DNA of 20,000 bases, taken from the IMG/VR virus record IMGVR_UViG_3300042053_000001, one strand, 5' to 3'. Every line of letters starts with the position of its first letter. Position 1 is the stretch's first letter. Under the pieces are notes generated by a model. The model searched no databases. It saw only the letters and a program-made list of their open reading frames with translations, and had not been told where the DNA came from. This DNA comes from an uncultured virus (IMG/VR IMGVR_UViG_3300042053_000001) (lineage: Duplodnaviria > Heunggongvirae > Uroviricota > Caudoviricetes). Of the stretch, positions 5,289-20,000 are shown one piece after another. The position numbers were made by a program, and so were the translations under genes.

Positions 5289-5318
5289 GTAAAGTCTGTA
5301 GAGAAGAAAGGGAAGAAA

Positions 5319-5753
5319 ATGAATGAAGAGAAAGAACAACGTAAATTAGACGAAGAGTTAGTTATCTCATGCACCTTGGGTCATACGAAAGTTGTTCAAC
5401 TCCTCCTCGAAAACAGCGCAGACGTCAACACAACTGATAAGGATGGCAACTCACCCCTACATCACGCATGTTCAAGGGGACATACGGATGTTGTTCGACT
5501 ACTCCTTAAAAACGACGCAAACGTCAATGCGATTAATAATGAGGATAACACACCATTATATATCGCATGTAGGTACGGTCATACGATAGTTGTGAAACTC
5601 CTCCTCGAAAACGGCGCAAACGTCAACACAACTTATGGTAAAGGGTGGTCACCACTACGTATCGCACATTTCCTAGATTATATAGATATAGAAGATCTTC
5701 TAAAAGTGTGTATCAAGAGAGAAGAGTTTAAAGAGAATAAAGAAAGGAAATAA
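5319..5753 (+). CDS. Small ankyrin protein, young family (N-cap + 2 internal repeats + C-cap)
   Basis: N-cap MNEEKEQRKLDEELVISC, internal GNSPLHHACSRGHT and DNTPLYIACRYGHT. The junction/RBS motif precedes it. Confidence 0.93.
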   Translation: MNEEKEQRKLDEELVISCTLGHTKVVQLLLENSADVNTTDKDGNSPLHHACSRGHTDVVRLLLKNDANVNAINNEDNTPLYIACRYGHTIVVKLLLENGANVNTTYGKGWSPLRIAHFLDYIDIEDLLKVCIKREEFKENKERK

Positions 5754-5757
5754 AATG
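5739..5757 (+). promoter_or_regulatory. Recurrent gene-junction/RBS motif AAAGAAAGGAAATAAAATG (representative copy)
   Basis: Variants end at the start codons 5319, 5755, 6480, 6895, 7210, 7851, 12060, 13639, 13744, 15005, 15618, 17227/17236, 17950 and 19646. The core AAGG/AGG is placed like a Shine-Dalgarno sequence. Confidence 0.85.
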
Positions 5758-6483
5758 ATTAAAACGAAAGAACAAATTGAATTATATGAAGAGTTAAGTG
5801 TTGCATGTAGAGAAGGTCACACAGATCTTGTTAAAGAACTCCTCCTTAAAAAAGGTGTAGACGTCCACGTGAAGAATAAGTATGGAGAGTCACCACTGCT
5901 CATCGCATGTTGGTTTGGTCATACGGATGTTGTTCAACTACTCCTCGAAAACGGCGCAGACGTCAACGCGATTAATAATGATAATAACACACCATTATAT
6001 ATCGCATGTAGGTATGGTCATACGAAAGTTGTGAAATTACTCCTAGAAAACGGCACATCCATGATGACAATTAATAATGAGTATGGTAACACACCATTAT
6101 ATATCGCATGTGTTGAAGGTAATACGGATATTGTTGAATTACTCCTCGAAAACGGCGCAGACGTCAACACGACTGATAAGTATGGCAACTCACCTCTGAA
6201 TTTTGCATGTAGTAAGAGCTATATAGATGTTGTTCAACTCCTCATAGAAAACGGAGCAGACGTCAACAAGGTTAATGAGTATGGTGAGACACCACTGCAT
6301 CACACATGTTTATGGGGTAAGACAGAGATTGTTAAACTACTCCTAGAAAACGGCGCAAACATCAACACAGTTGGTCAGTATGGCAAAACACCATACGATA
6401 TCGTATATAGGTCGGATGATAGAGAGATCATAAAGCTTCTAGAAGAACACATAGAAAGAGAATCAAGAAAGGAAATAAAATGA
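5755..6483 (+). CDS. Ankyrin protein, young family (7 repeats including caps)
   Basis: Starts 1 nt after the upstream TAA (TAAAATG), has regular 33-34 aa repeats, and overlaps the next gene by ATGA. Confidence 0.94.
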   Translation: MIKTKEQIELYEELSVACREGHTDLVKELLLKKGVDVHVKNKYGESPLLIACWFGHTDVVQLLLENGADVNAINNDNNTPLYIACRYGHTKVVKLLLENGTSMMTINNEYGNTPLYIACVEGNTDIVELLLENGADVNTTDKYGNSPLNFACSKSYIDVVQLLIENGADVNKVNEYGETPLHHTCLWGKTEIVKLLLENGANINTVGQYGKTPYDIVYRSDDREIIKLLEEHIERESRKEIK

Positions 6484-17243: not shown

Positions 17244-19644
17244 AGAGAAAGAACAATGTAAATTAGACGAAGAGTTAATTGAGGCATGTTCGCATGACCA
17301 TCCAGAGATTGTTAAACTCCTCCTCGAAAACGGCGCAGACGTCAACACAGTTAATGAGTTTGACCAGACACCACTGCATTTCGCATGTGAGTCAGGTCAT
17401 ATAGATATTGTTCAACTCCTCATAGAAAACGGAGCAAACGTAAACATGTCTAATGAGATTGGCTACTCACCACTACATGTCGCATGTTCGCATGACCATC
17501 CAGAGATTGTTAAACTCCTCCTCGAAAACGGCGCAGACGTCAACATGAAGACTAAAGGGGACAGCACACCCCTTCATATCACATGTGGAGGTAACCATCC
17601 AGAGATTGTAAAATTCCTCCTCAAGAAAGGAGCATACATCAACACAGCTGATGATCATGGTTCCTCACCACTACAAACCGCCTGTGATAAGGGTCATACT
17701 GATATTGTTAAAATCCTCCTTAAAAACGGAGCAGATGTCAACTCGTCGAATGATCGAGACTACTCATCTCTACATTACGCATGTGAGTCAGGTCATACAG
17801 ATGTTGTTCAATTACTCCTAGACAATGGTGCAAACGTCAACGTGGTTGCTAAGTATGGAGAGACTCCTCTGCATATGTCATGTTTAAAGGGTCATACAGA
17901 GATCATAAAACTGTTAGAAGCACACATCGAGAATAAAGATAGGAAAAAAATGGTTGAAACGAATAATGACAACACACCTCTGCATTTCGCATGTTTTGCT
18001 GGTAATACGAATGTTGTTCAACTACTCCTCGAAAAGGGCGTAAATATCAACACAGCTAATAAGAAAGGCTACACCCCGTTACATCTCGCATGTTATGAAG
18101 GTCATCTGATTGTTGTTAAAGAACTCCTTAAAAACGGAGCAAATGTAAACGTTACTGCTAAAAATGGCGAGACACCACTGTACGAGGCATGTTCAAGGGG
18201 TCATATAGATGTTGTTAAAGCACTCATCGACAATAACGCAGATGTCAACACAACTGATTCGGATGGCAAGACACCTCTGCATCTCGCATGTGGGCTTAGT
18301 TATGCGGATATTGTTCAATTACTCCTTAAAAACGGAGCAGTTGTCAATGTGAAGACTAATGAGTATGGATTTACACCACTGCATGTCGCATGTTTAGAAG
18401 GTCGTCTGATTGTTGTTAAAGAACTCCTTAAAAACGGGGCGAACGTCAACGCGACTGCTAAGTATGGCGACACACCACTGAACGAGGCATGTATAAAGGG
18501 TCATATAGAAGTTGTTCAACTCCTCATCGACAATAACGCAGACGTCACAACAACTGATAATTGTGGTCATTCACCACTGCACGAGGCATGTAGGAGGAAT
18601 CATACAGAGATTGTTCAATTCCTCCTTAAAAACGGAGCAGACGTCAACACAATTGATGAGGGTGGAAAGACACCACTGCATAGCGTATGTTTAAATAATA
18701 ATATAGAGATTGTTAAAGACCTCCTTAATGCAGGTGCGGAGGTTAATATACAAGATCAAGGTGATGGCTCACCACTAAATCTCGCATGTTCAATGGGTTA
18801 TATAGATGTTGTTAAAGAACTCATCAAAAACGGCGCAGATGTCACCATGAATAATAAGTTTGGTAGGTCACCCACACATACCGCATGTAGGAATAATCAT
18901 ATAGAGATTGTTCAACTCCTCATTGAAAACGGAGCAAATGTAAACGTTACTGCTAAAAATGGAAAGACACCACTGCATCTTGCATATGAGTATGGTTTAA
19001 CGAATATTGTTAAAGAACTCCTAAACAACGGTGAAAATGGTGCCTCAGTCAATAAGTATGGCGACACACCCCTACACATCACCTGTGAGAATAGTCATCT
19101 AGATCTTGCTAAAGAACTCCTTTCAAGTGGTACAAACGTCAACGTGACGAATAAGTATGGTAAGACACCACTACATCTCGCATGTTCTAAGAGTAATCTA
19201 AAGTTTGTTAAACTCCTCCTTAAAAACGGCGCAGACGTCAACACAACTGATAAGGATGGCAACTCACCCTTACATCACGTATGTTATAGAGGTAATATGG
19301 ATATTGTTCGACTCCTCCTCGAAAAAGGAGCAGACGTAGACATGGTTGGTGAGAATGGTTGCTCACCCCTACATTACGCATGTGATAAGGGTCATACAGG
19401 TGTTGTTCAACTCCTCCTTAAAAACGGAGCAGATGTCAATACGACTACTAAGAATGGCCAAACACCCCTACATTACGCATGTATGTATAACCATTCAGAC
19501 GTTGTAAAACTCCTCCTTAAAAACGAAGCAAACGTCAACACGGCTGATAGGCATGGTCAGACACCTCTGCATTCTGCACGTGGTAATAAGCATACATGGA
19601 TCGTAAATCTTTTAGAAGAACACATGAGTAAAGAAAGGGAATAA
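17227..19644 (+). CDS. Ankyrin protein, young family (24 repeats = a 7-repeat unit fused to a 17-repeat unit starting at ATG 17950)
   Basis: N-cap MIEEKEQCKLDEEL (alternative start 17236). An internal C-cap/junction/N-start IIKLLEAHIENKDRKKMVET lies at 17902-17961. Confidence 0.93.
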   Translation: MKKMIEEKEQCKLDEELIEACSHDHPEIVKLLLENGADVNTVNEFDQTPLHFACESGHIDIVQLLIENGANVNMSNEIGYSPLHVACSHDHPEIVKLLLENGADVNMKTKGDSTPLHITCGGNHPEIVKFLLKKGAYINTADDHGSSPLQTACDKGHTDIVKILLKNGADVNSSNDRDYSSLHYACESGHTDVVQLLLDNGANVNVVAKYGETPLHMSCLKGHTEIIKLLEAHIENKDRKKMVETNNDNTPLHFACFAGNTNVVQLLLEKGVNINTANKKGYTPLHLACYEGHLIVVKELLKNGANVNVTAKNGETPLYEACSRGHIDVVKALIDNNADVNTTDSDGKTPLHLACGLSYADIVQLLLKNGAVVNVKTNEYGFTPLHVACLEGRLIVVKELLKNGANVNATAKYGDTPLNEACIKGHIEVVQLLIDNNADVTTTDNCGHSPLHEACRRNHTEIVQFLLKNGADVNTIDEGGKTPLHSVCLNNNIEIVKDLLNAGAEVNIQDQGDGSPLNLACSMGYIDVVKELIKNGADVTMNNKFGRSPTHTACRNNHIEIVQLLIENGANVNVTAKNGKTPLHLAYEYGLTNIVKELLNNGENGASVNKYGDTPLHITCENSHLDLAKELLSSGTNVNVTNKYGKTPLHLACSKSNLKFVKLLLKNGADVNTTDKDGNSPLHHVCYRGNMDIVRLLLEKGADVDMVGENGCSPLHYACDKGHTGVVQLLLKNGADVNTTTKNGQTPLHYACMYNHSDVVKLLLKNEANVNTADRHGQTPLHSARGNKHTWIVNLLEEHMSKERE

Positions 19645-19645
19645 A

Positions 19646-20000
19646 ATGATTAAAACGAAATATCATGACTCACCACTGCATCACGCATGTTCAATGGGTC
19701 ATATAGATGTTGTTAAAGAACTCCTCGAAAAAGGCGCATACATCAACACAGCTAATAAGTATGGCAACCCACCTCTGCTTATCGCATGTAGAGGAGATCA
19801 TATAGATATTATTCAACTACTCCTAGAAAACGGCGCAAACGTCAACACAGTAGGTGAGTATGACTACACACCACTACATATCGCATGTATAAAGGGTCAT
19901 ATAGAAGTTGTTAAAGATCTCCTCAAGAACGGAGCAGACATCAACGCAACTAATAAGTGTTGTCAGACACCACTACATTTTGCATGTTTAGAAGGGCATA
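19646..20000 (+). CDS. Ankyrin protein, young family, 3'-partial (not in the supplied ORF track)
   Basis: TAAAATG junction. Hand translation MIKTKYHDSPLHHACSMGHIDVVKELLEKGAYINTANKYGNPPLLIACRGDHIDIIQ...TPLHFACLEGH is open to the window end and resembles the 15005 gene. Confidence 0.92.
   Translation, partial: MIKTKYHDSPLHHACSMGHIDVVKELLEKGAYINTANKYGNPPLLIACRGDHIDIIQLLLENGANVNTVGEYDYTPLHIACIKGHIEVVKDLLKNGADINATNKCCQTPLHFACLEGH

Follow-up and report, generated by a model that had tools for sequence, protein, structure and literature searches.

A recurrent boundary motif in the ankyrin-repeat gene array of a presumed tailed phage: probably ordinary translational coupling with gene fusion and fission

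The 20,000-nt stretch of IMG/VR record IMGVR_UViG_3300042053_000001 analyzed here (the window; positions count along it) comes from an uncultured virus of the class Caudoviricetes and carries an array of ankyrin-repeat (ANK) genes whose units are joined by a short recurrent motif, referred to below as the joint. All long open reading frames (ORFs) of the window lie on the + strand. In the gap-collapsed sequence, from which 100 N and a duplicated 127 bp were taken out, 16 ANK ORFs with 5,072 codons make up 77% of the total. A Pfam scan of 13 window proteins matched all 11 ankyrin ORFs among them to the families Ank and Ank_2-5 far above the curated cut-offs and identified the remaining two as a valyl-tRNA synthetase (ValRS) and an AAA ATPase. 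The repeats have a 99-nt period, corresponding to a 33-residue periodicity, and are 60–70% identical to one another as DNA. Each of the units at 5319-5753, 5755-6483 and 6480-6893 is composed of an N-cap, internal repeats and a C-cap. The ANK N-termini are charged (MIEEKEQRKLDEEL, MVETKDENGD) and lack a hydrophobic leader, as judged by inspection of the translations. For comparison we used a sister virus record, G001 (72,577 nt, linear, CheckV completeness 68%), which has in common with the window 80% of the latter's 31-mers, and four sequencing runs containing the window (X1 to X4), all from one study and labelled as mollusc metagenome. Run X1 is probably the window's own source, and only X2 to X4 are partly independent.

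The 19-mer AAAGAAAGGAAATAAAATG is matched 11 times in the window at no more than three mismatches, exclusively on the + strand, whereas 200 shuffles gave a mean of 0.01; the recurrence between units reported in the initial annotation is thus well beyond chance. Allowing indels raises the number of matches to 13, and the joint at 7210, added by eye, brings it to 14 unit boundaries, all of them anchored on an ATG (Table 1). That annotation also held that the motif is read in three frames. Two of these were found as described: frame A, with TAA, one nucleotide and ATG, at 5753/5755, 6893/6895, 15616/15618 and 19644/19646, and frame B, with an ATGA overlap, at 6480-6483. The third, in-frame read-through, was borne out for KKMDKM (7210), KKGYNM (7851) and KKGNKM (13744), and read-through also occurs as DRKKM at 17950, but the last of these is the motif minus the T of TAA and not the intact motif in a third frame. 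The states tally as four TAA-A-ATG arrangements, one ATGA overlap, four in-frame fusions and one stop-loss overlap. The latter, a fifth state, is found at 17227, where TAA has become GAA, a 9-nt duplication includes the ATG, and the upstream ORF overlaps the next one by 17 nt. The joints at 5319, 13639 and 15005 head blocks and are preceded by decayed tails of former genes: the DNA 5' of ATG 5319 represents the preceding ANK gene's decayed tail, and a decayed copy of the C-terminal tail, CIKREVYKSVENKDRK, followed by a stop, closes the stretch 14779-15004 and runs into the joint of ATG 15005. This non-coding stretch resembles the remnant of a lost unit.

Conservation around the ATG is maximal from about −22 to +17. 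The mean pairwise identity is 0.83 in the 19-nt core, 0.72 in the 39-nt module and 0.56–0.62 in the 99-nt flanks. The module comprises the last C-cap codons (…KLLEEHI-x-NKERK), a stop codon, the ATG and the first N-cap codons (M-I/V-K/E-T/E-K…), and the joint thereby places the Shine-Dalgarno (SD) site and the ATG of the next unit within the last codons of the previous one. The TAA of frame A is present at 11 of the 14 joints and the TGA of frame B, within ATGA, at eight; at the other six, frame B extends 22–94 nt further. The second codon of the unit begins with G at five joints and with T at one. Upstream of each ATG, the alternative frames are open for the final 14–57 nt only. KERK-stop, RKEIK-stop and KKGNKM are different readings of the same conserved nucleotides, so the constraint acts on the nucleic acid and not on the peptide. 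Most simply, what is constrained is the next unit's ribosome site and start, and homogenization by gene conversion may contribute to the conservation.

A gapped alignment of the joints, with the spacer measured from a conserved CACAT (His-Ile/Met) to the core, sorts them by frame. The frame A class has spacers of 7 nt (15618, 17950 and two joints of G001) or 4 nt (19646, 17227 and 6895), frame B has a spacer of 11 nt (6480), and in-frame fusions have none (7210, 7851 and 13744). All frame-setting indels that could be placed fall in the unit tail. Because the three joints without a spacer belong to one class, they probably stem from one event that was later duplicated. The joint at 17950 and its paralogue at 15618 are identical over 65 nt except for the lost T of TAA; with the stop and the start one base apart, loss of a single stop-codon base removes the stop and restores the frame together. 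Given the short open lengths of the alternative frames, only indels in the tail can give split, overlapping or fused outcomes. A simple-sequence contingency locus of the kind that underlies phase variation was considered and rejected: intact joints contain only A3–A4 runs, and the frame-setting spacer is purine-rich without a tandem repeat.

Table 1 Joints, genes and other features of the window (positions count along the window; strand "." where not applicable).
Feature	Position	Strand	Basis or remark
Junction variant heading the first motif-bearing ANK unit (ATG 5319)	5303..5321	+	3 mismatches to the 19-mer
Three free ANK units	5319..6893	+	ORF calls, Pfam Ank families
Junction, frame A, K-E-R-K/TAA/1 nt/ATG	5739..5757	+	Exact 19-mer
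Junction, frame B, R-K-E-I-K then TGA in ATGA	6464..6483	+	11-nt spacer; same state in G001; X3 contig covers
Junction variant, frame A, GGG TAA A ATG	6879..6897	+	Indel-tolerant match
Fused three-unit ANK ORF	6895..8336	+	G001 continuity, X1/X2 contigs, predicted fold
Fused junction KKMDKM	7192..7212	+	0-nt spacer; most degenerate SD, −3.1 kcal/mol
Assembly artefact	7618..7844	.	100 N and second copy of 127-bp contig-end overlap
Fused junction KKGYNM	7835..7853	+	0-nt spacer
Valyl-tRNA synthetase	8340..11039 (likely start 8445)	+	Pfam, start contexts
ANK gene, early stop by GAG to TAG	11015..12040	+	Three-frame reading, alignment
Exact 19-mer before non-ankyrin gene	12044..12062	+	
AAA ATPase, 269 aa, apparent chimera	12060..12869	+	Pfam, relatives
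Degenerate junction, ATG to TTG, heading one-repeat mini-unit	13623..13641	+	
Fused junction KKGNKM	13728..13746	+	0-nt spacer; X1, X2 and X4 contigs cover unchanged
Non-coding 226-nt stretch, decayed C-terminal tail	14779..15004	+	Three-frame reading
Junction heading 15005-15616	14989..15007	+	
ANK ORF followed by a second ANK ORF	15005..15616, then 15618..17243	+	Frame-A joint between
Junction, frame A, paralogue of the 17950 joint	15602..15620	+	Between 15005-15616 and 15618-17243
Stop-loss junction, TAA to GAA, 9-nt duplication	17211..17243	+	G001: canonical TAA-A-ATG
805-aa fused ANK protein	17227..19644	+	Paralogue of 15005-17243
Fusion by T loss, GGAAA-AAAATG	17934..17952	+	T in paralogous joint and sister haplotype
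Junction, frame A, GAA TAA A ATG, before last, cut-off unit	19630..19648	+	

The three-unit fusion is interrupted in the record by 100 N (7618-7717), which adjoin the joint at 7851, are flanked by an exact 127-bp duplicate and have to their left a contig that ends within a junction motif. The combination of 100 N and a 127-bp duplicate resembles the signature of a contig-end overlap at k = 127. Contigs of X1 and X2 join 7490 to 7718, with the 127 nt fitting either side, and the counterpart in G001 (60847-62061) is continuous. With the gap bridged in this way, 6895-8336 is one 404-codon ORF with two fused joints. An AlphaFold2 single-sequence model of this triple unit has a mean pLDDT of 84.6, a pTM of 0.44 and three confident blocks; pLDDT drops below 50 only at residues 104–108 and 241–249, the two junction peptides (Met 106 and Met 244). 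As modeled, the fusions look like independently capped ankyrin domains on a string.

Comparison with G001 showed that free and fused forms both exist. The two records align at 99.83% identity without gaps over window 1-7617 (G001 53953-61569) and at 98.5% identity over window 7718-18063 (G001 61443-71780). Every joint from 5319 to 15618 is in the same state in both, and 19646 lies beyond the end of G001. Two joints differ. The G001 counterpart of 17227 is a canonical TAA-A-ATG, and that of 17950 keeps the T, so that G001 has a 237-aa gene followed by the next gene, as opposed to the single 805-aa ORF of the window, which amounts to a 203-aa-like unit plus a 541-aa-like unit and whose residues 242–805 are 73% identical to the protein encoded by 15618-17243. 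Among the variants listed for run X2 up to 16,978, 18 of 18 equal the G001 base, and the window has no differences in X1; G001 is therefore the X2 haplotype and the window the X1 haplotype. The split and fused states at 17950, one T in TAA apart, are accordingly a polymorphism between haplotypes. The number and order of units are equal in the two haplotypes over the shared 18 kb.

Among the contigs listed, none of them across 17947, independent ones reproduce most of these joints: 6895, 7210, 7851, 12060, 13639 and 13744 in X1 and X2, 6480 in X3 and 15618 in X4. No indel is among the variants listed for the four runs. The concern that the fusion states are read errors is thus answered by contigs of two samples without indels and by the bridging of the N gap.

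Three further observations were made. First, a 9-nt tandem duplication at 17220-17240 (GAAAATGAA / GAAAATGAT) doubles the start codon, giving MKKMIEEK, and is not found in G001. Second, differences between the haplotypes form tight clusters within ankyrin repeats (3951-4005, 16205-16218 and 16907-16974), as gene conversion between paralogous repeats would give. Third, run X3 has high-depth contigs in which a unit tail is connected with the head of a different unit (for example, 19625 to 6459 at a depth of 2587); they may come from a related, more abundant phage with a different unit order, with sides that are too short to trust. Contig joins linking distant units have sides of 20–42 nt (58 nt in one case), and we did not use them as evidence for shuffling.

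The genomic context is provided by G001, in which all 65 ORFs of at least 120 codons are on one strand. PHROG matches in its first 52 kb comprise structural and lysis proteins (endolysin, terminase large subunit, portal, head protease, major head protein, tape measure and tail proteins) and a replication set (two helicases, DNA polymerase, UvsX-like recombinase, sliding clamp, clamp loader, exonuclease and ribonucleotide reductase, RNR). Pfam analysis of 25 further G001 ORFs revealed three more ankyrin ORFs directly after the RNR gene, the first of which overlaps it. Across the 44 ORFs scanned with PHROG or Pfam on the upstream side of the window, no integrase or other lysogeny domain was detected. 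The major head protein reaches no more than 30% identity with any GenBank phage, the best matches being SPO1-like Bacillus phages (27–30%), and has one relative in IMG/VR, at 27%. The array is located at the right end of both records, each of which is incomplete. On these grounds, we interpret the window as an accessory arm belonging to a novel tailed phage from mollusc metagenomes. Among the replication genes, G001 also has a 1,035-aa ORF (44475-47582) with a radical-SAM N-terminal domain and a radical-SAM domain, and without a PHROG match.

The initial annotation left it between two possibilities whether the 19-mer is specific to the array or represents the usual ribosome-binding context of the organism, and each turned out to be partly correct. 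The sequence itself is confined to the ankyrin arm at no more than two mismatches: there are eight such matches in G001, all at or beyond 59,691, and none on the reverse strand or with a reversed control. With up to four edits, 13 of 14 matches are in the arm, and one precedes an unrelated gene at 35,644. In contrast, SD strength and stop/start packing follow the norm of the phage. Duplex energies, computed against a generic anti-SD, are −4.2 to −6.3 kcal/mol at the motif starts, compared with a core-gene median of −5.9 (n = 45), and −3.1 to −4.8 kcal/mol at the fused joints, compared with a mean of −1.8 at other internal ATGs (n = 25). Likewise, 12 of 44 core gene pairs are spaced by −4 to +2 nt, including four ATGA overlaps and one TAA-A-ATG, and the ANK joints are spaced by +1 nt (5755, 6895, 15618 and 19646) or −4 nt (6480), apart from the 17-nt overlap at 17227.

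Outside these records, the 19-mer occurs in at least 120 stretches of 185,579 species genomes; the 80 listed have one copy per locus in unrelated organisms, which is consistent with chance, and include no other array. An extended module pattern (23 nt, of which 2 degenerate) had no match in the species-genome contigs and none in IMG/VR. Its only match in JGI metagenomes (n = 1) is located in a high-GC phage-like locus without ankyrin genes and was rejected as a chance occurrence. A protein search with the 203-aa unit returned only generic ankyrin similarity, at 28–51% identity (proteins of 111–356 aa; best 8,000 candidates scored).

Two genes of the array are not ankyrin genes. ValRS is a full-length class-I enzyme inside the ankyrin arm, with HIGH-like and KMSKS motifs in its translation, and its TGA shares bases with the ATG of the ANK gene that follows (11036-11039). 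It is 41–44% identical to the best of 80 matches in the 185,579 species genomes, with no close organism, and at most 46% identical to anything in the GenBank phage set, where most of the matches look like bacterial or unannotated records. The relatives of the AAA ATPase, of the SpoVK/Ycf46/Vps4 type and about 322 aa long, are up to 75% identical to it. The homology begins at residue 9, which corresponds to residue 66 of the relative, so that about 57 N-terminal residues are missing, and the gene opens with the exact 19-mer and MVKTK, as an ANK unit does. The preceding ANK gene has its canonical tail E-N-K-E-R-K-stop cut five codons early by a change of GAG to TAG. In the simplest reading, a deletion or illegitimate recombination would have joined the start of an ankyrin unit to the ATPase body, and the junction now serves as its start region.

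Several smaller features were noted in the window. A single-repeat mini-unit (13624-13746) lies between a degenerate joint, in which ATG is replaced by TTG, and a fused joint; the ORF that contains it (13624-14778) has start candidates at TTG 13624, TTG 13639 and ATG 13744, and its real start is uncertain. A 130-codon + strand ORF at 14147-14539 reads ankyrin repeats in another frame and is itself periodic; it is most likely a by-product of the repeat and no gene. A promoter and terminator scan was uninformative: it returned 49 promoter-like sites where 62 were expected, and none of the unit ends had a + strand terminator. A tRNA scan found none.

We consider it probable that the array combines ordinary translational coupling with gene fusion and fission, the joint being a copied unit boundary. 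Each duplication of a unit would have carried this boundary along, from the C-cap tail with its SD through the stop, a single base and the ATG to the first codons of the N-cap. The joint would then act as a termination-reinitiation site, that is, a site of translational coupling, as at many other gene pairs of the phage. Small indels in the purine-rich spacer or in TAA would shift the phase, with +1 giving two genes, +2 an ATGA overlap and 0 a fusion, and the fusion products would be strings of independently folded ankyrin domains linked by the junction peptide. That the joint is more strongly conserved than the repeats would be due to purifying selection on the ribosome site, to which gene conversion may add. 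The data show the anatomy of the joints, the indels, the split/fused polymorphism between the two haplotypes and the phage context, whereas coupled translation, the direction of most of the events and this selection are inferred.

Coupling by termination-reinitiation has been described at overlapping or nearly abutting genes, including ATGA and TGATG arrangements (Huber et al. 2019, PMC6728339; Huber et al. 2023, PMC10666635). [quoted passage not shown] Like the coupled pairs described there, the ANK units are co-directional, their stops lie −4 to +1 nt from the next start, and the SD is within the last ~15 nt of the upstream gene. Unlike them, the joint is repeated 14 times, since the genes are paralogous; +1 nt, and not −4 or −1, is the most frequent spacing; and the coupling is putative.

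Several points weigh against this reading. The region from 16.5 to 18 kb is ~10% divergent between the records, with 14 small indels, and the joints there are perhaps not strictly orthologous; one record may contain a paralogue misassembly at this position. The joint is conserved beyond simple drift of a duplicated boundary, which leaves room for additional selection or for homogenization by recombination. It also heads the non-ankyrin gene at 12060, for which a copied boundary needs an extra illegitimate recombination. Both records are incomplete, and the phage status of the arm is deduced from contiguity, from shared strand and packing and from the lack of lysogeny genes in the scanned ORFs. 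Finally, coupling and use of the internal ATGs are predictions from the sequence.

A different view is that the ~40-nt joint is a recombination hot spot, both kept uniform by homologous recombination or gene conversion and serving as a crossover point for them, perhaps through the UvsX-like recombinase, with whole units shuffled, duplicated and deleted as cassettes. We regard this as unlikely overall, yet as a possibility with real points in its favor. The joint is the longest near-identical stretch between units; around the two paralogous joints the 65 nt differ by one T only, whereas the proteins are only 73% identical; the clustered differences between haplotypes look like conversion tracts; the joint appears transplanted onto the ATPase body; the phage encodes a UvsX-like recombinase; and in some X3 contigs a unit tail continues into the head of a different unit. 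However, the equal number and order of units in both haplotypes are not what shuffling would lead one to expect, the divergent patch neither begins nor ends at a joint, the X3 joins have sides of 20–28 nt and are unreliable, and capture of the ATPase cannot have been homologous. An integron-like or other site-specific cassette array was rejected: the genes lie 1 nt apart or overlap, the joint does not form a palindrome, and no integrase domain was detected among the 44 ORFs scanned upstream.

In a more ambitious version, the TAA-A-ATG(-A) module in its slippery purine-rich tail would be retained for flips between free and fused, multivalent forms by 1–7-nt indels that do not silence the next unit. 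It would also offer the phage's recombinase the sole long stretch of identity for reshuffling units and for grafting the start module onto other genes, as on the AAA ATPase. We consider this doubtful.

The initial annotation went in a related direction, taking the joint for a universal connector that supplies a ribosome-binding site, a start and a stop whatever the incoming frame. Understood as a selected three-frame fail-safe, TAA-A-ATG-A would stop ribosomes beside the ATG in two frames and be read through in the third, ensuring that the next unit is still translated after any indel while units toggle between free and fused forms. This seems improbable to us, although much about the joint fits: TAAAATGA puts TAA, ATG and TGA in three frames, and both stop positions are within coupling distance as given in PMC10666635; all three outcomes occur within one array; the nucleotides are conserved regardless of frame; the free and fused states differ between haplotypes; and the SD sites of fused joints are stronger than those of other internal ATGs. 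The joint does provide an SD and an ATG, and often a stop, but 6 of 14 joints, those with G or T as the first base of the second codon, lack the frame-B stop. Nor does the provision hold for every incoming frame, given that the alternative frames are open over the last 14–57 nt only and that the relevant indels are confined to the last codons. The three frame-C joints form one spacer class and thus represent few independent events. The tight layouts at 12 of 44 unrelated core gene pairs, with the same SD strength, point to a general style of the phage and do not demonstrate selection for a fail-safe. Bacterial cistrons that have a ribosome site of their own are generally translated whether or not a frameshift occurs upstream. 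Such independent initiation already provides the claimed robustness, so a special connector is not needed, and the 1-nt spacing explains the behavior of the joints.

The arm could also be bacterial chromosome beside an integrated prophage, with the array and ValRS derived from an ankyrin-rich intracellular bacterium. ValRS is a bacterial housekeeping gene, both records are incomplete, and the tetranucleotide correlation between core and arm is 0.78–0.81, below the 0.96 between halves of the core; the repeat content of the arm alone, however, depresses this correlation, and GC content is similar (0.376 and 0.387 in the arm/core comparison). Several features make a bacterial flank improbable: the absence of integrase and lysogeny domains from the 44 ORFs, the lytic-type replication module, the overlap of the first ANK ORF with the RNR gene, the single strand and packing style of all 65 ORFs, and the low identity of ValRS to its best matches in species genomes.

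Sequencing or assembly errors in a repetitive short-read assembly could in principle have produced the frame states, the fusions above all. The spurious N gap with its duplicated flank and a contig ending inside a joint, the A7 run created by the fusion at 17950, the many contigs that fit two places in the repetitive array and the disagreement of the haplotypes exactly in its most repetitive part are all of the kind expected from artefacts. We nevertheless judge this very unlikely: independent contigs of X1 to X4 reproduce the joints with no indel listed in any run, G001 has the same state at 12 of the 13 joints that it reaches (5319 to 15618) and interpretable differences at 17227 and 17950, and repeats of 60–70% DNA identity are resolvable by short reads. 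Least credible of all is a programmed +1 frameshift at AAA-TAA-A, aided by an SD-like AAAGG: skipping the T of AAA-TAA-A-ATG would give the same K-K-M fusion as its deletion, exactly as read at 17950, and an SD-like element lies just upstream, as beside the +1 frameshift site of prfB, but the codon before TAA varies (AAA, GAA, GGG, ACA) and the SD spacing is unlike that of prfB.

The array has partial parallels in known systems. The 'genomic accordion' of Bodo saltans virus (BsV) comprises 148 ankyrin-repeat genes, which for the most part are directional tandem copies located peripherally in the genome (PMC5871332). As in BsV, the array here consists of tandem same-strand ankyrin genes of variable length in an accessory region, including recent duplicates (15005-17243 and 17236-19644, with 73% protein identity) and a chimeric ORF of array sequence and another viral gene, the AAA ATPase. 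Unlike BsV as there described, it belongs to a tailed bacteriophage with bacterial-type SD/coupling joints and has ~19 genes rather than 148, and the chimera has an ankyrin-unit start on an ATPase body, whereas in BsV fragments of essential genes are inside ankyrin ORFs. Unlike accordions as portrayed in that source, the window and G001, two haplotypes only, show no difference in copy number.

Closer in virus type are the sponge 'Ankyphages', whose phage-encoded ankyrin genes include two for proteins with signal peptides (Jahn et al., bioRxiv 10.1101/608950), and Wolbachia phage WO, which carries a eukaryotic association module and ankyrin genes (PMC5062602). As in both, phage hallmark genes (terminase, portal and capsid) and ankyrin genes are on one contig from an animal-associated community. 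Unlike in the available Ankyphage description, which mentions no arrays, 16–19 ORFs form an array here, and unlike the two Ankyphage proteins noted there, the products have charged N-termini and no signal peptide by inspection. The ANK unit matches 31 of 50,697 GenBank phage records, 16 of which are phage WO, with 29–41% identity to the WO ankyrins; the phage is not a WO relative, as its head protein best matches SPO1-like Bacillus phages and the scanned ORFs contain no integrase. Literature searches aimed at phage ankyrin arrays brought up no array of this size in a tailed phage. Poxviruses provide further genomic accordions. That small indels at abutting genes cause fusion and fission is a general principle; here, by comparison, the change is seen as a polymorphism between near-identical haplotypes and between paralogous copies in one genome.

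The locus shows, with natural polymorphism as the control, that tight stop/start packing makes fusion or fission of a repeat protein a one-nucleotide event. Should the flip-and-reshuffle version prove true, the arm would be a built-in diversity generator of eukaryote-directed binding proteins. The junction itself is ordinary; its phage context is moderately interesting and perhaps of greater value than the motif. This phage devotes at least 20 kb, equivalent to more than a quarter of the 72.6 kb of G001, to ankyrin proteins, which typically serve to manipulate eukaryotic cells, and it carries a ValRS of its own.

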